Positions 3,528-62,667 of a stretch of DNA of 64,000 bases are shown piece after piece; position 1 is the first letter of the stretch; each line of letters opens with the position of its first letter. Origin of the DNA: an uncultured Bacillota bacterium. Lineage in GTDB: Bacteria > Bacillota_I > Bacilli_A > RF39 > UBA660. The stretch is taken from assembly GCA_946630315.1 (NCBI GenBank), contig CAMOYT010000001.1:895-64894 (forward strand), written 5' to 3'. The notes under the pieces were generated by a model. That model was not told where the DNA came from. It saw nothing but the letters and a program-made list of their open reading frames with translations, and did not search any database. The translations under genes were made by a program, and so were the position numbers.

Positions 3528-5585
3528 ATGAAAGTTGTTTTGCAAGATGGAATTAAAGACTGTGGTATTTGTTCTTTACTAAGTATTATTCGATTTTATG
3601 GGGGAGATGTATCGAAGGAGTATTTAAGAGAAATTACTAATACTACAAAAGATGGAGTTTCTTTTTATCAATTAATAGAAGCTAGTAAATTGCTTGGATT
3701 GGATGCTATCGGCATGAATGGAGATATAACGAAAATACAAGAAAATAACTTACCTTGCATAGCACATATTATTGTAAACAAAAATTATAAGCATTTTGTA
3801 GTTATATATAAAATAGATAATAAGAAAAAGTTAGTTACACTTATGGATCCTGCTAAAGGTAAAAAAGTTATTTCTTTTAGTGAATTTAATTTACTTAGTA
3901 GTGGTAATTTTATTTTCTTTACAAAAGTTAAAAATTTACCAATACTAAAAAAAAGAAATATTATTTTTAAACAAGTTAATAAGTTTATAAAAAAATATAG
4001 ATTAATATTGTCATTACTCATACTTCTAATTATTAATTATTTCGTTTTGAATATCATCATATCTTTTTACTTTAAATATATCTTAACTTTCTCTATCAAT
4101 TATAATATTACGGATAATATTTATTTTATAAGTAGTATTATACTTGTTTTATATATATTAAGTAGTGTAATTAATTTAATTAAAAATAAAATAACTAATA
4201 AGTTATTTTTAATATTTGATTCTATCTTAACAACTAATACTTTCAAACAAATCTTATTACTTCCATATCTATTTTATAAAAATAGAACAAGTGGAGAAGT
4301 ACTTGCTAGAATAAGAGATTTAAATATAGTAAAGAATTATTTAATAAAAGTATTTTTATCAATATTTGATTTTATAAGCATTATTATTTTTTCTATATTA
4401 ATTTTCTCAATAAATAAGTATTTTGCTGTTATTATTATATTCTTTTCTATTGTATTGTTGATAATAATGTTTTTATTTAATAAGAGAAAAACTATTCTTA
4501 TTAAAAGAATAAAATCAGTAGAAGATTTAGTTAATAGTCACTTGATAGAAGCCGTAACATCAGTTGAGACTATTAAGGGAAGTCATCTAGAGAAAAGATA
4601 TATAGATACTTTTTTGTTAAAATATAACTCTTTATTAGATAGACAATTAAAGTATATTAATTTAGTAGAAATAATGGATTTTATTAAGACTAATGTTCAT
4701 TCTATATTAATAGTAGCTTTATATAGTATAGGAGGTATTTATATTATTAAAGGTACAATGAATATTAGTAGTATTATAATTCTTCAATCTTTTTTACAGT
4801 ATTATTATGACTCCTTTCAAAATATTATTAGTATCATTAATGATTATTCCGAATATAAAATAGTAAAAGAGAGAGTAGAAGAATTGTTTTTAATAAAAGA
4901 AGAGTCTTTTGTTGGTAACTATTTTTATTTGTCATATAAATTATTAGGTAATATTGAGATTAGTAATTTAAATTATAAGATTAGTAGTAAGAATATTTTT
5001 TCTAATCTGAATATAAATATAAAGTATGGTGAACATCTATTGATTAGTGGAGAGAGTGGATGTGGTAAATCTACTTTGATGAAGATGATTATGAGATATA
5101 TTGAAGTACCATATGGAATTATTAAAATTGATGGGATAGATATTAATCATTATCATTTAGAAAATATTAGAAAAAATATTACTTATGTTACTAGCTCTGA
5201 GTATTTATTTACTGATACTATTAGAAATAATATTATTTTAAATAATAATATTTTAGAAGAAGAATTTTTAAAAATATGTAAGATTTGTATGGTAGATGAA
5301 ATATGTAGTTCATATGAAGATTTAATTGAAGAGAATGGCTTTAATTTTAGTAGTGGAGAGAGACAAAGAATTATTTTAGCAAGATCTCTTGTTCGTAATA
5401 GTAATATTTATATATTTGATGAAGCACTTGGTCAAATAGATATTACTAAAGAAAAGAAGATATTAACTAGTATTTTTGATTATCTAAAAGGAAAGACTAT
5501 TATTGTTATTAGTCATAGATTTAATAATAAGAAATTATTTGATCGAGTAGTCAAACTAAGTGAGGGTAGAATAATTGATACTTAA
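3528..5585 (+). CDS. Bacteriocin-processing/export ABC transporter with an N-terminal C39 peptidase domain (ComA/LagD-like).
   Basis: N-terminal QDGIKDCGICSL (C39 catalytic Cys). ~6 TM helices. Walker A GESGCGKST, signature FSSGERQR, Walker B IYIFDEA, H-loop ISHR. Extremely Ile/Asn/Lys-rich and lower GC than neighbours. Confidence 0.85.
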   Translation: MKVVLQDGIKDCGICSLLSIIRFYGGDVSKEYLREITNTTKDGVSFYQLIEASKLLGLDAIGMNGDITKIQENNLPCIAHIIVNKNYKHFVVIYKIDNKKKLVTLMDPAKGKKVISFSEFNLLSSGNFIFFTKVKNLPILKKRNIIFKQVNKFIKKYRLILSLLILLIINYFVLNIIISFYFKYILTFSINYNITDNIYFISSIILVLYILSSVINLIKNKITNKLFLIFDSILTTNTFKQILLLPYLFYKNRTSGEVLARIRDLNIVKNYLIKVFLSIFDFISIIIFSILIFSINKYFAVIIIFFSIVLLIIMFLFNKRKTILIKRIKSVEDLVNSHLIEAVTSVETIKGSHLEKRYIDTFLLKYNSLLDRQLKYINLVEIMDFIKTNVHSILIVALYSIGGIYIIKGTMNISSIIILQSFLQYYYDSFQNIISIINDYSEYKIVKERVEELFLIKEESFVGNYFYLSYKLLGNIEISNLNYKISSKNIFSNLNINIKYGEHLLISGESGCGKSTLMKMIMRYIEVPYGIIKIDGIDINHYHLENIRKNITYVTSSEYLFTDTIRNNIILNNNILEEEFLKICKICMVDEICSSYEDLIEENGFNFSSGERQRIILARSLVRNSNIYIFDEALGQIDITKEKKILTSIFDYLKGKTIIVISHRFNNKKLFDRVVKLSEGRIIDT

Positions 5586-5982
5586 GAACTTCGAAAAATT
5601 AAAAGTAGTTATATTTTTTAGTATTTTATTAATACTTTTTGAGATATTTTTATATTGTTTCTTTTTATCTATTAAGATTAATACTTATCATAAGTATTCA
5701 GGAATTATATTTAGTAATAAGTTAGTATATTTAATGGTTAATGATAAGGAGCTGAATGATATTTATAAGAATAAAGCATTTATTTATGATAAGAATAAAT
5801 ATAAATTAGATATTGATCATATTAATAGAAATGTCTTAAAAAGAGATGGTAAGAATATTAATCAAGTATTTATTAAATATAAGAGTGTTAATAGAGATAA
5901 TGAGGTTATAGATATTATCCTTTATAATAAAAAAATAAATGTAATAGAAATGTTTAAAATTATTTGGAAGGAGGATGTATGA
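5575..5982 (+). CDS. Small membrane-anchored accessory protein of the bacteriocin locus (truncated HlyD-like accessory or immunity protein).
   Basis: N-terminal TM helix followed by a beta-rich soluble region. Overlaps the ABC gene end and the prepeptide start. No family motif recognised. Confidence 0.4.
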   Translation: MILKNFEKLKVVIFFSILLILFEIFLYCFFLSIKINTYHKYSGIIFSNKLVYLMVNDKELNDIYKNKAFIYDKNKYKLDIDHINRNVLKRDGKNINQVFIKYKSVNRDNEVIDIILYNKKINVIEMFKIIWKEDV

Positions 5983-6131
5983 GCGAAATTTCAAATGACA
6001 AGTTAGATAAAATTAATGGAGGCATGACAACAACAGCTGCTGTATTAATTGGAGTAGCAGTAACAGCAGTTATAGTTTTTGTATCAGGTCTTATTGAAGG
6101 AATCACCAATCCTTTGAGGTGTAATGGATGA
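5979..6131 (+). CDS. Double-glycine-leader bacteriocin prepeptide 1 (50 aa; mature 35 aa). Not in the ORF track.
   Basis: MSEISNDKLDKINGG|MTTTAAVLIGVAVTAVIVFVSGLIEGITNPLRCNG. Leader fits the LS..EL..I.GG consensus. Mature peptide is hydrophobic with a GxxxG motif. RBS GGAAGGAGG upstream; start overlaps the stop of the upstream gene. Confidence 0.8.
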   Translation: MSEISNDKLDKINGGMTTTAAVLIGVAVTAVIVFVSGLIEGITNPLRCNG

Positions 6132-6301
6132 AGCAAATTGATAAAAATGTGTTAGATAATATTTATGGAGGTACTAATACTATTTCTTCAACAGTTATTA
6201 ATGCAATTACTAATTTAATAAAATTACTTAAGGATGCTGGATACTCACTAGGTAGTGGAATGCGAAGAATTGGAGAAGATAAGATGTGTCCATTGGAATA
6301 A
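6128..6301 (+). CDS. Double-glycine-leader bacteriocin prepeptide 2 (57 aa; mature 42 aa). Not in the ORF track.
   Basis: MKQIDKNVLDNIYGG|TNTISSTVINAITNLIKLLKDAGYSLGSGMRRIGEDKMCPLE. ATGA start/stop overlap with peptide 1. GxxxG motifs. Single Cys. Confidence 0.75.
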   Translation: MKQIDKNVLDNIYGGTNTISSTVINAITNLIKLLKDAGYSLGSGMRRIGEDKMCPLE

Positions 6302-6404
6302 AAAAAGCAATTTTTATAATTATTTCTATTCCTCTTTTTTATCTATTGTTAAATTTACTATTTGCTTTTGGATTTTATATTGGAAAAATACTAGGTTGTA
6401 TGTA

Positions 6405-6433
6405 AAGAGCTTTAATAGCTCTTTATTTTTTTA
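6405..6433 (+). terminator. Rho-independent terminator closing the bacteriocin operon.
   Basis: 7-bp stem AAGAGCT/AGCTCTT with loop TTAAT, followed by a U-run. Confidence 0.7.
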
Positions 6434-6625
6434 TGTTTAAAAACAAAGGAAAAAGCACTATATAAAAATTAATTATATTTTCTATAATTTTATTTTATTA
6501 TAAGTTTTTTTTAAGTTATTATTTTTAAAAATTTTAATAAAAAATAATTATAAATTTTATAAAAAATAGGTATTTGTTTTTTGAAATAAAAGGTATTTAT
6601 ACTTGAATTAAGAGGAGGAGATTAG

Positions 6626-7111
6626 ATGAAAAAGTTTGCGAATACTTTAGAAGTTTTTCAAAAAGCAATGCAAGGAAGAGACTTTAGTTATGATATTTAT
6701 TTTCGTATTGCAGTAATTAGAGAATACTTAAATGGAAATGAAAAAATATGGAATTTATATCAAGAGATGCAAGAAAAGAGATGTGGAGAAATAAAAGAAA
6801 TTCCAGAAGAGATGGTAAATCATATTGATGCTTTTAAAGAGTTAATTGATGACTTTAAGGATAATGGTTATGATCCAATATATCCAATACTTGTTAATAA
6901 AGATGGTTATATCATTGATGGAGCACATCGAATGGCATGCAGTTTATTCTTTAATGTGGAGGAAGTAGTTATTATGACTAATAATCAATATTATGTTTTT
7001 TATCCAGCTGAGTATACAAAAGAATGGTTTATCAAAAATGGTTTGGAAGAATGTATAAAATTTGCTGAAAGGGAAAAAGAATTGTTAGAAAAAAGATATG
7101 TTCAAGAATAA
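6626..7111 (+). CDS. Hypothetical protein, first gene of the nonulosonic-acid cluster.
   Basis: 161 aa, good RBS AGAGGAGGAG. No recognisable motif. Confidence 0.5.
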   Translation: MKKFANTLEVFQKAMQGRDFSYDIYFRIAVIREYLNGNEKIWNLYQEMQEKRCGEIKEIPEEMVNHIDAFKELIDDFKDNGYDPIYPILVNKDGYIIDGAHRMACSLFFNVEEVVIMTNNQYYVFYPAEYTKEWFIKNGLEECIKFAEREKELLEKRYVQE

Positions 7112-28272: not shown

Positions 28273-28962
28273 ATGGTAAGAATTGGAATTCCTTTAAGAT
28301 ATAGTCATTTAGAAGATGGAAGATGTATTTTATACTTAGGTGAGAAGATTAGAAGGTGTTTTCAAGAAGCTGGTAGTTTAGTTATACCAATTGTTCAAGT
28401 ACAAGATGTTGATTATTGTGATACTAAATATAATGAATTTACTAAGTTAACTAAAGAAGAAAAAGATAGTATTGATAAATACTTAGATATGGTTGATGGA
28501 GTAGTATTTCCAGGTGGTAATAAGATTACTCCATTTGATAAATATTTACTTGAGAGATGTATTGAGAGAGATATTCCAACTCTTGGTATATGTTTAGGAA
28601 TGCAATTAATGAGTTGTTTTAGAGATGATTTTCAAGTGTTTAAAATAGAATCTAGTATTAATCATTATCAAGATAGTGATGATGTATTAACTCATGGTAT
28701 TAAAATTAATAAAGAATCTATTCTTTATAAAATACTTGGAGTGGAAGAGTTAAAAGTAAATAGTTTTCATAAGTATCATGTTAGTGAAAATGATTATTTT
28801 AAAAATATTGCTTATAGTGAAGATGGTTATATTGAAGGAATTGAGATGCCTAATAAAAAGTTTGTTGTTGGTATTCAGTGGCATCCAGAGATTAGTTATT
28901 CTTTTGACGAAAATTCTAAAAAATTAATTGATAGTTTTATTAATATTTGTAAAAGATATTGA
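28273..28962 (+). CDS. Class I glutamine amidotransferase-like / peptidase C26 (gamma-glutamyl hydrolase PuuD-like).
   Basis: LGICLGMQLM (catalytic Cys) and GIQWHPE (His) motifs. Confidence 0.7.
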   Translation: MVRIGIPLRYSHLEDGRCILYLGEKIRRCFQEAGSLVIPIVQVQDVDYCDTKYNEFTKLTKEEKDSIDKYLDMVDGVVFPGGNKITPFDKYLLERCIERDIPTLGICLGMQLMSCFRDDFQVFKIESSINHYQDSDDVLTHGIKINKESILYKILGVEELKVNSFHKYHVSENDYFKNIAYSEDGYIEGIEMPNKKFVVGIQWHPEISYSFDENSKKLIDSFINICKRY

Positions 28963-29094
28963 CATATTTTTTATTTGTGATATATTTAAATTACTAATAG
29001 GATAATATCTTGTAATAACTTTATTGATCTTGTAATAATTGTTATTACAGTAAATCTTATCATACCTATTAGGTCGAAATTACATTTTATTGGA

Positions 29095-29110
29095 AGAGAA
29101 GGAAAACTCT
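29095..29110 (+). repeat. Hairpin element, copy A (AGAG-AAGGAAAA-CTCT).
   Basis: One of four similar hairpins (29095, 29579, 61969, 62154). A downstream GATAA box and A-rich/ACTCGG-like tail follow. Confidence 0.5.
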
Positions 29111-29299
29111 CAGTACGACATTGTGGCTAGACAAACAATGATAAAGTCGATGTTGATAGTAGAAATACAAAAAAAATCAACGGCCCCCTGTTAAACCAAT
29201 GATATAATTAGTCTTATCAGAGTCAGTTATATCTAGAAAAATATAAGCTTATTGATTGTATAATAAGTCTCGCAGGAAAAGTAGTTCCTTAGTTATATT

Positions 29300-29337
29300 T
29301 TTGGAATACAAGTAATCATTGGACTTGTATTTTTTTT
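29300..29337 (+). terminator. Rho-independent terminator inside the essC upstream region.
   Basis: atacaagt-aatcattgg-acttgtat hairpin followed by T8. Confidence 0.65.
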
Positions 29338-29578
29338 ATTGACTTTTTTTGTATATGAGTATATACTTAAGACATATCCTAGATAAAAATAGCATTTCTC
29401 AATATATTATGGAAGTTATGAGATTAGAAGTAATCAAAATAATGGAAATAGTAAAAAAGAGAAACCGGGATTCAAGAGAATTAAGGATAAGCTATTAAAA
29501 TTCAAATAACCAACAGGGAATGGACAAGCTCCATTTTAAAAAAAATAACGTGTCGGGACTAGGATATATGTAATTTCT

Positions 29579-29594
29579 AGAGAAAGAAAACTCT
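29579..29594 (+). repeat. Hairpin element, copy B (AGAG-AAAGAAAA-CTCT).
   Basis: Followed by ..ACTGATAAT.. and ..AAAAAAACTCGGAT.., as in copy C at 61969. Confidence 0.5.
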
Positions 29595-61622: not shown

Positions 61623-61968
61623 TCTTTTTTTTGACAGTGGTTGACAACAACATTTTTTTTATTTTTTTAAAAGTATTGACTTTTTTTCTCAGTAGTTTAT
61701 AATGGTATTAGAAACTAGAGAGGCGAGGGAAAATAATTTAAATTAGAATTTATAGTTATTATTGATATTAGAGTTTATCGATATAATTAGTTATTATGAT
61801 TATTATAATAAAATTTATTAAGTAATTATGATAATTCGTTATATGTTAAATTTGATATTTTGATAATATTTAATTTTATGTTTATTTGTTTTTATTACTA
61901 TAATATAGTAATTCGTACTTATGACTATGATTGTAATGATTATCTAGGCTGGTTTTATATAATTATGT

Positions 61969-61984
61969 GGAGAAAGAAAACTCC
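61969..61984 (+). repeat. Hairpin element, copy C (GGAG-AAAGAAAA-CTCC).
   Basis: Flanked upstream by ATAATTATGTG and downstream by ..ACTGATAAT..AAAAAACTCGGAT. Closest to copy B at 29579. Confidence 0.5.
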
Positions 61985-62153
61985 TCAGGTAAGTTGTATG
62001 TATTCACTGATAATGAATATATATAAGAAAAAACTCGGATGAATAATCTTAAGAATAAACAATAGCAACTGCTTTGATTAATCGGAGAAATTGAGGTTAA
62101 TGATCGATAAGCAATGAAAAAAATTCTTACTGGCTATTGTGACATAATTATAT

Positions 62154-62169
62154 GGGGAAGGAAAACCCC
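62154..62169 (+). repeat. Hairpin element, copy D (GGGG-AAGGAAAA-CCCC).
   Basis: Flanked upstream by ATAATTATATG and downstream by ..GATAATGAC..ATAAAAAACCAATGA. Confidence 0.5.
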
Positions 62170-62397
62170 TTAAAGATAATGACGAAGTATTGAACGGATG
62201 CTAAACGTTATTCATAAAAAACCAATGAAAATTCTTTATCAGAGAATAATTCATCTACTAAATATAGAGTGATATATTTATAAAAAGTGTAGGATACGTT
62301 ACTCCTATATTTTTTTTTGTAAATTAATTGCTGTAATATTGAAATAAATATTTATTATTGATACAATTTATATAGTATGATATTGGAGGTTGTTATT

Positions 62398-62667
62398 ATG
62401 GAAAAGCAAACTTTTAGAGGAGCTGATAAAGTTGAATTCAACTTAGAAAATCATAATAAAAATAATTCTTTAAGTGGACTTGTTGAAAATAACAAACCAA
62501 GTAGTTTAATTGAAAGTCAAGATAATTCGAGAAAAGTTGAAGTTGAATCTGTAGACTTTAGTACTTTATTTACTAGTGAGATGGAACAAGGATTTAGTAC
62601 TGTTAGTGATGCTGATTTAAAAAATGTTCAAATTTATAATGACAATAATAGTGGAGAGATATTATAA
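62398..62667 (+). CDS. Hypothetical small Asn/Ser/Glu-rich protein. The track ORF begins at 62377.
   Basis: RBS GGAGG then ATG at 62398. ~89 aa, no motif recognised. Confidence 0.4.
   Translation: MEKQTFRGADKVEFNLENHNKNNSLSGLVENNKPSSLIESQDNSRKVEVESVDFSTLFTSEMEQGFSTVSDADLKNVQIYNDNNSGEIL

Follow-up and report, generated by a model that had tools for sequence, protein, structure and literature searches.

Paired non-coding RNAs around four repeated hairpins in a low-G+C Bacilli genome: PGK-motif RNAs and a sister family as probable subunits of natural RNA–RNA dimers

Results

Four co-varying hairpins in two intergenic regions

The stretch of DNA analysed here (the window) comprises 64,000 nucleotides (nt) from an uncultured Bacillota bacterium (GenBank assembly GCA_946630315.1, contig CAMOYT010000001.1, forward-strand positions 895 to 64,894), with a G+C content of 27%. 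It contains four hairpins of the form RRRG-AARGAAAA-CYYY, all on the plus strand and all within two intergenic regions; these hairpins and the non-coding RNAs (ncRNAs) that appear to carry them are the subject of this work. Region 1 is flanked by genes for a C26 peptidase and an FtsK/SpoIIIE-FHA (EssC-like) ATPase. The flanks of region 2 are an NfnB-like gene, an open reading frame (ORF) of 89 amino acids (aa) and a YhhQ/Vut_1 gene. The hairpins are the following.

29095 (+): hairpin A, AGAG-AAGGAAAA-CTCT
29579 (+): hairpin B, AGAG-AAAGAAAA-CTCT, with a 5-bp stem
61969 (+): hairpin C, GGAG-AAAGAAAA-CTCC
62154 (+): hairpin D, GGGG-AAGGAAAA-CCCC

A preliminary description of this DNA had placed hairpins at these coordinates, which we confirm, although the order of its stem list did not match them; the correct assignment is the one given above. 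Searching the whole window with the pattern RGAGAARGAAAACTCY, allowing up to two mismatches, returned four sites, the same four hairpins, against 0.44 expected, and none of 100 shuffled sequences reached four. The octamer AARGAAAA occurs 56 times on the two strands together, and only in the four hairpins is it flanked by a stem of at least 4 bp. The motif is thus well above chance frequency, and the contexts described as common to several copies are real. Each has a place in the structures described below: ATAATTAT, 5′ of C and D, is the segment complementary between those two copies (part of helix H), ACTGATAAT, found together with AAAAAACTCGGAT 3′ of B and C, is the loop of a hairpin named P3, and AAACTCG is a conserved box ahead of the terminator of B and C.

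The hairpin stems co-vary from A-U to G-C at two positions, both within the window and across ~80 homologues. The same is seen for each of the stems named P2, P3, P2′ and K below, where G-U pairs are tolerated, and together this indicates that the conserved entity is RNA rather than DNA. Folding the four copies as single sequences gave indecisive Z-scores of -0.2 to -2.8. The analysis revealed no conserved ORF, as the four copies differ in frame and contain stop codons, and compensatory stem changes alter the encoded residues. A small-ORF reading was rejected, because start codons by the hairpins give differing frames or stops in the four copies. Resemblances to ANTAR, K-turn (C/D box) and hammerhead elements were dropped because loop sizes and positions do not fit.

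Hairpins B and C as divergent PGK-type RNAs

At the gathering threshold, an Rfam scan of the whole window reported only a T-box leader and two tRNAs, with nothing at the four hairpin sites. Run in E-value mode, the family RF03040 ('PGK RNA', Rfam type 'Cis-reg', gathering cut-off 50.8 bits) matched C with 49.8 bits (E 3.7e-5), 1 bit under the cut-off, and B with 34.9 bits (E 0.026), 16 bits under it. A and D gave no match to RF03040 at E up to 10, and no Rfam family covers them. The annotated family that the preliminary description could not name was therefore found for B and C, below the cut-off, and not for A and D. Both B and C contain the RF03040 inner hairpin GAG-AAAGAAAA-CUC and the second hairpin with loop ACUGAUAAU, the latter being absent from A and D. 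The likeness to the PGK motif extends to the hairpin GAGAAAGAAAACUC, to the CUUAUC and GAUAAG boxes of a possible outer stem, for which the Rfam alignments of B and C show non-canonical pairs, and to the kind of host, namely low-G+C gut Bacilli including Clostridium sp. CAG:914, where the motif lies upstream of pgk.

Loci (numbered with the prefix L) were gathered by pattern scans of genome and metagenome collections, and all locus counts are lower bounds. A scan of the genome collection for GAAAGAAAAC...ACTGATAAT gave at least 120 loci; ~39 are real elements and the remainder are chance matches in coding DNA. The real elements come from metagenome-assembled genomes with 22-35% G+C, labelled Bacilli, Erysipelotrichaceae, Clostridium sp. 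CAG:914 and similar. When collected elements were rescanned with Rfam, 7 of 17 exceeded the PGK cut-off, with 51.7-94.5 bits, as did a second copy standing in tandem at L044. The close relatives of B (class I) are likewise at or under the cut-off (L082 at 51.7 bits, others missed). A second class of PGK-type copies (class II, ~26 copies) is defined by the terminator loop UUUAUCAGR.

A covariance model for this clade (R1) was built from 38 collected PGK-type sequences, in which P2 and P3 are backed by compensatory changes. R1 matched C with 62.7 bits (E 1.7e-8) and B with 53.9 bits (E 8e-7), matched D weakly (28.6 bits, E 0.044) and did not match A. By these scores and shared elements, B and C are assigned to a divergent branch of the uncharacterised RF03040 'PGK' motif. 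Among 28 PGK-type partner copies gathered with no constraint on the P2 loop, this loop was AAAGAAAA in 21, AAAGACAA in four, AGAGACAA in one and another sequence in two. We take the motif to originate from Weinberg et al. 2017 (Nucleic Acids Res, PMC5737381), the main text of which does not mention it, and the terms 'PGK motif', 'PGK RNA motif' and RF03040 gave no mention in the literature searched.

Hairpins A and D as members of a sister family

Hairpins with a AAGGAAAA loop adjoin PGK-type copies in seven genome loci. These partner RNAs have in common, in this order, CUUAUC, CUAUUAG, AAUUACA, stem-AAGGAAAA-stem, a variable core, AAACC, a hairpin with a UUUAUCAGR loop and, further on, a terminator. 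Scanning the metagenome collection for the partner pattern gave 82 loci, 41 of them genuine, and a covariance model (R2) was made from 42 partner RNAs, of which 37 are metagenomic and five come from genome loci, with window-identical sequences left out. R2 matched D with 67.5 bits (E 4e-9) and A with 65.2 bits (E 1e-8), and had no further match in the window. A and D both carry the features that define the partner family (CUUAUC, CUAUUAG, stem-AAGGAAAA-stem, AAACC, the UUAUCAG-loop hairpin and the terminator) in addition to their R2 scores. P2′ and K are the co-varying stems of this family; MAFFT with RNAalifold on the first 9 partner sequences recovered the P2′ stem alone. On this evidence we describe A and D as a sister RNA family, absent from Rfam and previously undescribed.

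Building covariance models and scanning relatives, as the preliminary description had advised, thus yields two families, R1 (B, C) and R2 (A, D). The repeated, structured nature of the element stands, but the four hairpins are not equivalent copies of a single family; they belong to two complementary partner types.

Cognate partners are complementary at four places

The elements of the three predicted RNAs in the window (RNA A and RNA B in region 1, and the C-D RNA in region 2) are listed here. P2 and P2′ are the hairpins introduced above.

28959-28986 (+): RNA A, predicted sigma-70 promoter, TTGACA-16-TATATT with TG, 11/12 matches, start at ~28993; homologues share this layout
28994-29001 (+): RNA A, P0 5′ strand CTAATAGG at the extreme 5′ end, pairing with CCTATTAG at 29065-29072
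29041-29240 (+): RNA A, core ('AAGG' type), the R2 match
29056-29062 (+): RNA A, CTTATCA, complementary to TGATAAG of RNA B
29076-29085 (+): RNA A, H′ GAAATTACAT, complement of H in RNA B
29095-29110 (+): RNA A, hairpin P2′
29116-29121 (+): RNA A, CGACAT, complementary to GTGTCG of RNA B
29193-29197 (+): RNA A, AAACC
29214-29220 (+): RNA A, TTATCAG of the K hairpin, loop CTTATCAGA
29306-29337 (+): RNA A, intrinsic terminator, ATACAAGT...ACTTGTAT then T8, kept in homologues
29339-29367 (+): RNA B, predicted promoter, TTGACT-17-TATACT, start at ~29374; orthologous layout in L159 and L141
29377-29382 (+): RNA B, P0 5′ strand TCCTAG, pairing with CTAGGA at 29559-29564
29540-29638 (+): RNA B, PGK-type module, the RF03040 and R1 match
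29550-29555 (+): RNA B, GTGTCG
29568-29577 (+): RNA B, H ATGTAATTTC, exact complement of H′ in RNA A
29578-29595 (+): RNA B, hairpin P2
29597-29603 (+): RNA B, TGATAAG
29620-29628 (+): RNA B, P3 hairpin, loop ACTGATAAT
29647-29681 (+): RNA B, AAACTCG box and intrinsic terminator, GATATATC-GTGT-GATATATC then T8, an ordinary loop without UUAUCAG
61676-61703 (+): C-D RNA, predicted promoter, TTGACT-16-TATAAT, 11/12 matches, start at ~61710
61712-61718 (+): domain C, P0 5′ strand AAACTAG, pairing with CTAG at 61944-61947 and TTTT at 61953-61956, with a 5-nt bulge
61930-62037 (+): domain C, PGK-type module, the RF03040 and R1 match
61939-61944 (+): domain C, ATTATC, complementary to GATAAT of domain D
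61957-61968 (+): domain C, H ATATAATTATGT
61969-61984 (+): domain C, hairpin P2
61988-61993 (+): domain C, GGTAAG, complementary to CTTACT of domain D
62006-62014 (+): domain C, P3 loop ACTGATAAT
62031-62037 (+): domain C, AAACTCG
62059-62066 (+): domain D, P0′ 5′ strand ACAATAGC, pairing with GCTATTGT at 62133-62140; locus L138 is identical to the window
62111-62262 (+): domain D, partner ('AAGG') module, the R2 match
62126-62131 (+): domain D, CTTACT
62142-62153 (+): domain D, H′ ACATAATTATAT, exact complement of H in domain C
62154-62169 (+): domain D, hairpin P2′
62175-62180 (+): domain D, GATAAT
62219-62223 (+): domain D, AAACC
62236-62242 (+): domain D, TTATCAG of the K hairpin, loop TTTATCAGA
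62287-62318 (+): C-D RNA, intrinsic terminator, GTGTAGGA...TCCTATAT then T9, kept in orthologues
62339-62367 (+): predicted promoter of the 89-aa gene and yhhQ, TTGAAA-17-TACAAT with TG, followed by a ribosome-binding site GGAGG and ATG at 62398

Four complementarities link the partners: helix H, two short flanking helices and a 7-nt loop-loop match. Due to the failure of automatic alignment to recover P1 and P0, cognate and non-cognate duplexes were instead scored without alignment and compared in a permutation test. By this measure helix H and both flanking helices co-vary between cognate partners (permutation p <= 0.0004).

Helix H comprises ~10-15 nt directly 5′ of P2, complementary to the segment 5′ of the cognate P2′. 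Cognate pairs scored 20.9 against 15.4 for non-cognate pairs (33 pairs, permutation p<1/5000), and at least 10 different duplex sequences are seen. In the window, ATGTAATTTC of B and GAAATTACAT of A are exact 10-nt complements, and ATATAATTATGT of C and ACATAATTATAT of D are exact 12-nt complements that account for the ATAATTAT context of C and D. The flanking helices are swapped P1 helices: each RNA has a CUUAUC-like box on its 5′ side and a GAUAAG-like box 3′ of P2, and the former pairs with the latter of the partner in both directions (CTTATCA of A with TGATAAG of B, and CGACAT with GTGTCG; ATTATC of C with GATAAT of D, and GGTAAG with CTTACT). For these, cognate pairs again score above non-cognate ones (p=0.0004 and p<0.0002), and pairing in trans is stronger than pairing in cis in 21 of 32 and 26 of 32 pairs. 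The fourth complementarity joins CUGAUAA in the P3 loop of the PGK-type RNA to UUAUCAG in the K loop of its partner, over 7 nt. That the P3 loop pairs instead with the 5′ strand of P1 was considered and rejected, since P1 co-varies while the loop is invariant. RNAduplex applied to whole RNAs returned giant AT-rich duplexes that were no better than those of shuffled sequences.

Predicted transcription units

Predicted strong, consensus-like promoters lie 100-260 nt upstream of PGK or partner modules. From these and the terminators, RNA A is predicted to run from ~28993 to 29337 (~345 nt) and RNA B from ~29374 to 29681 (~308 nt), each with its own promoter and intrinsic terminator, and C and D appear to be fused in one RNA of ~610 nt (61710-62318). 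Orthologues of the C-D unit have the same promoter followed by the AAACTAG 5′ end. The ATAATTAT box had been considered as a promoter and was rejected, given the conserved P1 and P0 helices upstream of it and the strong predicted promoters 100-260 nt further upstream.

A box located between H and the 5′ strand of P1 pairs with the predicted 5′ end of the transcript (CUUAGUA, CCUAGAGG, UUUAGAG, CUAAUAG and others). The resulting helix, P0, forms a pseudoknot with cis P1, and across 84 elements it co-varies, with cognate pairs scoring above non-cognate ones (p<1/5000). Orthologues of domain C have TAAACTAGG with CCTAGTTTA or AAACTAGT with ACTAGTTT at this position, and P0′ of domain D changes in step in the same way (TTCTAATAG with CTATTAGAA; CCAATAGC with GCTGTTGG). 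The RF03040 model spans only ~92 nt, as opposed to the apparent 300-600 nt of the RNAs described here, and includes neither the P0 helix of the 5′ end nor the AAACUNG box, the terminator/K hairpin or the partner RNA.

Promoter-like sites are also enriched after the terminators, at 37.5% against 4.5% in shuffled sequences for scores of at least 10.5/12 and at 61% against 10% for scores of at least 10/12. The promoters, the terminators and these post-terminator promoters lead us to read A, B and C-D as stand-alone ncRNAs, and the separate promoter at 62339-62367 indicates that the C-D RNA is not the 5′ untranslated region (UTR) of the downstream gene. Within the predicted 5′ domain of RNA B there is a 29-codon ORF (MEVMRLEVIKIMEIVKKRNRDSRELRISY, 29409-29498, +), with a small hairpin and U-run 3′ of it at ~29518-29538.

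An alternative that we judge unlikely, and that is nonetheless the strongest of the rivals, holds that PGK-type RNAs are cis-regulatory leaders or riboswitch-like attenuators, with a terminator opened or closed by a ligand or factor and with the H and K pairings as parts of the switch. The Rfam type of RF03040 agrees with this, as does the downstream gene, which begins a short way past the terminator and shares the strand of the RNA for 22 of 24 class II units and for 40 of 47 partner units. Judging by sequence, the stretch 5′ of the AAACUAG box could pair with the 5′ half of the terminator in some class II RNAs, and in the window no strong promoter separates RNA B from the essC-like gene that comes after it. 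However, same-strand genes are about equally frequent on the upstream side (51 of 58), so orientation does not speak for cis regulation. Sites resembling consensus promoters are far commoner after the terminators than in shuffled sequences, with one of them after domain D, and at locus L044 (6100-6960, minus strand, Clostridium sp. CAG:914) two tandem class II units each have their own TTGACA promoter and lie directly upstream of the promoter of pgk. The genes downstream are diverse, which argues against a specific ligand: class II copies are followed by murG, pgk, tgt, a relA-like gene, pflB and a gene for a 118-aa protein, and partnered units by genes for a 130-aa protein (16), an MTS methyltransferase after rplJ-rplL (10), EssC-like ATPases (6), uvrA and others. 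A partner may even be encoded on the opposite strand. The 'Cis-reg' type and the cis outer stem of RF03040 fit poorly with the post-terminator promoters and the better pairing in trans. In short, of the riboswitch-like or small RNA family suggested in the preliminary description, structured ncRNAs are what we find, and the marks of a riboswitch or 5′-UTR attenuator are not, with RNA B and its essC-like gene as a possible exception.

Arrangement of the partners and the two classes of PGK-type RNA

Among 41 partner loci picked by the partner pattern alone, 30 have an R1 match on the same strand. This match is 120-480 nt upstream in 25 and ~550-630 nt downstream in three, the latter as in region 1 of the window; five of the 11 partner loci with no R1 match have less than 400 nt of upstream sequence. 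None of the PGK-type copies at the 30 partnered loci has a UUAUCAG of its own. In the genome loci, a nearby partner was found for 10 of the 11 class I copies with enough flanking sequence, compared to 0 of 26 class II copies. The P3 loop CUGAUAA is kept in 28 of 29 unconstrained partners and is the exact complement of UUAUCAG, so the complement is supplied either in cis (class II) or by a neighbouring RNA.

The two classes also differ in the H segment. In class II this segment holds a perfect palindrome of 6-12 nt (mean 9.7), against a mean of 4.3 in class I and 4.7-4.8 in shuffled sequences, and several palindromes are represented (ACAAUUGU, CACGUG, AUACGUAU, CGAUCG). At L044, the first of the two tandem units departs from this pattern, with a P2 loop of 7 nt (AGAGAAA) and a palindrome that is imperfect. 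The same-strain contigs L001-L007 are 99% identical to the window and are uninformative.

All of the long-range pairings might instead be intramolecular, with each PGK-type RNA and its partner forming one long transcript in which the internal terminator is leaky or structural; we give this a little less credence than the leader alternative. The C-D unit and its orthologues do lack a terminator between the halves, which are 120-135 nt apart, and in 25 of 30 partner loci the PGK-type part is directly upstream on the same strand. In other subtypes, however, a consensus promoter and a hairpin followed by a U-run lie between the halves, with the P0 strand of the partner at the start of that promoter's transcript. 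Partners are encoded on opposite strands at L065, L100, L070 and L113, and the order is reversed, with the partner first, in region 1 of the window and at L149, L152 and L159, from which we conclude that the pairing can act in trans. Finally, the palindromic H of class II has no second copy in cis.

A proposed paired-RNA assembly

We propose that each of the four hairpins is a P2 stem-loop in one of two composite ncRNA units, each unit made up of a PGK-motif RNA and a sister RNA, which probably form natural RNA-RNA dimers. Helix H (10-12 bp) would join the stretches that immediately precede the two P2 hairpins and would be flanked by the two swapped P1 helices. A 7-bp kiss would connect the invariant P3 loop, A-CUGAUAA-U (of the YUNR type), with the invariant UUAUCAG loop of the partner hairpin, while within each RNA P0 would pair the 5′ nucleotides of the transcript with the box just upstream of H. 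The resulting shape may be one of two four-way junctions joined by H, from which the A-rich P2 loops project, and these loops are most likely elements for tertiary or protein contacts. The window would hold two versions of this assembly, A+B as a heterodimer formed in trans and C-D fused in cis. The class II RNAs, with their own UUAUCAG, a palindromic H and no partner, look like homodimers, as this combination suggests.

Intermolecular base-paired bridges are the hallmark of RNA-only oligomers, and the co-variation of H and of the swapped P1 helices, the opposite-strand partners and the palindrome dichotomy all point to such bridges. We also put forward, with confidence evenly divided for and against, that PGK-motif RNAs in general are natural dimer subunits, and that they passed from a palindromic homodimer (class II) to a pseudo-symmetric heterodimer (A+B) and then to a re-fused RNA of ~600 nt (C-D). 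The step from homodimer to heterodimer could have come about by duplication and loss of one of two symmetric kissing contacts. If so, a homodimer-to-heterodimer evolution that is familiar from proteins would be seen in RNA. To our knowledge, this would be the first natural bacterial RNA heterodimer of such a kind.

Several points weigh against this proposal. Because neither the P3 nor the K loop varies, what speaks for the kiss is complementarity and the complementary pattern of presence and absence, not co-variation. The permutation tests ignore phylogenetic relatedness and their p-values therefore overstate independence, although at least 10 duplex types are represented, and the E-values are approximate. 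Instead of mediating a dimer, the class II palindrome could fold locally into a small hairpin. The patterns used to collect loci fix the P2, P3 or K loop sequences exactly, which biases the sample to canonical members, and C misses the Rfam cut-off by 1 bit, with B well below it. Transcript ends, promoters and terminators are all predictions from sequence. Between the terminator of B and the essC-like gene there is no clear promoter (best site 9/12), and this may be the one case in the window of control by read-through.

The preliminary description compared the hairpins with CsrA-type binding sites, and GGA loops that titrate or recruit a global RNA-binding protein would indeed suit the AAGGA in the 8-nt loops of A and D, their short stems and a degree of loop conservation that would fit protein recognition. 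This we consider highly improbable, as only A and D have a GGA in the loop, whereas B and C lack it, as do all 28 unconstrained PGK-type copies. There is only one such hairpin per RNA, with no clustering, and the hairpins are distant from any Shine-Dalgarno sequence or ribosome-binding site and lie inside a larger conserved fold. No CsrA-like coding sequence was matched in the window and all loci (1.4 Mb), a weak result given that the CsrA query was entered by hand and 1.4 Mb is a small part of any genome. The CsrB/RsmZ sponges share with our RNAs purine-rich hairpin loops, with AAGGA in A and D, but the RNAs described here have no repeated array of GGA hairpins and their PGK-type partner has no GGA. 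The description's other suggestion, of MITE-like or other selfish repeats with a promoter and terminator, has in its favour several copies per genome region, always intergenic, each bringing a promoter and terminator, yet it is scarcely credible: pairwise alignments of the four copies reveal only short common motifs, the helices co-vary, the same subtype occupies the same syntenic site across many species (after rplL, before essC-like genes, between ftsW and murG), the viral contigs searched yielded no copies (the sole match being a chance hit inside a tail-fibre-like ORF), and no terminal inverted repeats or target duplications were noticed, though no dedicated repeat search was run.

Relation to known RNA systems

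The paired RNAs proposed here may be compared with OLE, ROOL and GOLLD, which are natural RNA-only homo-oligomers held together by bridges and kissing loops between copies, OLE forming a symmetric dimer (Kretsch et al. 2025, Nature, PMC12286853). Those are also large, ornate bacterial ncRNAs of unknown or poorly known function with intermolecular base-paired bridges, although they share no sequence or Rfam similarity with the RNAs of the window. The latter are multi-copy per genome, unlike OLE, ROOL and GOLLD, and their assembly is deduced from co-variation. A further difference is that homodimeric, heterodimeric (two-gene) and fused forms are all proposed here, while the word 'heterodimer' is absent from the text of PMC12286853. 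By analogy, our best guess at a role is a stable, abundantly made RNA particle like OLE, ROOL or GOLLD rather than a 5′-UTR switch. If correct, a genetically split, co-varying heterodimer would join the very short list of natural RNA-only assemblies, and the dozens of natural compensatory variants make the pairing idea directly testable.

Kissing complexes with YUNR loops are a feature of antisense systems such as CopA/CopT, RNAI/RNAII, hok/sok and par RNA I/II of pAD1, where in par the first contact is made through terminator loops. The likeness is that a YUNR (CUGA) loop meets a fully complementary loop and that further helices follow. Antisense kissing pairs are sense and antisense products of one DNA that control replication or a toxin mRNA, unlike the partners described here, which are paralogous, separately encoded and structured. 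The class II palindrome recalls the HIV-1 DIS, the palindromic loop that serves as the retroviral dimerisation initiation site, in being a self-complementary segment whose sequence is free to change while it stays palindromic. It differs in lying in a junction strand beside P2, flanked by further intermolecular helices, rather than in a hairpin loop. The P3 loop CUGAUAA has, we believe, the same sequence as the anticodon loop of tRNA-Ile(GAU) in bacteria, and AUC, an Ile codon, lies within the complementary loop of the partner. That the assembly senses or mimics tRNA-Ile(GAU) is speculative, and the sequences searched contained no tRNA-Ile gene for comparison.

For the orphan Rfam motif PGK, the wider context appears to be an RNA of 300-600 nt with its own promoter and terminator, a 5′-end pseudoknot and an obligatory partner. 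In annotation terms, the intergenic regions upstream of the window's two essC-like clusters would be ncRNA genes and not long 5′ UTRs. More generally, sub-threshold Rfam matches and repeated hairpins in uncultured low-G+C gut Bacilli can conceal whole RNA families.

Gene neighbourhood and minor observations

The strain encodes two EssC-like FtsK/SpoIIIE ATPases of ~1520 aa, one at 29745-34310 of the window and the other at 5459-6663 of locus L001. The second gene lies just past the window end, after yhhQ and genes for a 268-aa protein and a sortase-like protein. Each of the two clusters has one RNA unit ahead of it, and an EssC-like gene comes right after a partner RNA in four further distinct loci (L154, L183, L091, L131). 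Small W-N-G proteins, reminiscent of WXG100 substrates, flank several units (84 aa upstream in the L181 type, 87 aa downstream in L142). Pfam gave no significant match for the 87-aa protein of L142 or for the recurrent 130-aa downstream protein.

At L148, L193, L082, L204 and L181, past the partner terminator, the MTS-type methyltransferase gene downstream of rplJ-rplL has a leader with a conserved hairpin (GAAGAAAAC...GUUUUCUUC, then a U-run) behind a TTGACT-17-TATTAT promoter; it is apparently a short attenuator in its own right. In four related loci (L154, L162, L197 and L091), the fused C-D-type unit has a tRNA-Arg(TCT) gene 1.4-2.3 kb upstream of it. In the window, tRNA-Arg(TCT) is at 2409-2485, 27 kb from the nearer unit (region 1), and this distance suggests that the linkage is probably only synteny. 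The T-box leader reported by Rfam (RF00230, 35821-36013, +) scored 105 bits against a cut-off of 93 and is unrelated to the hairpins.

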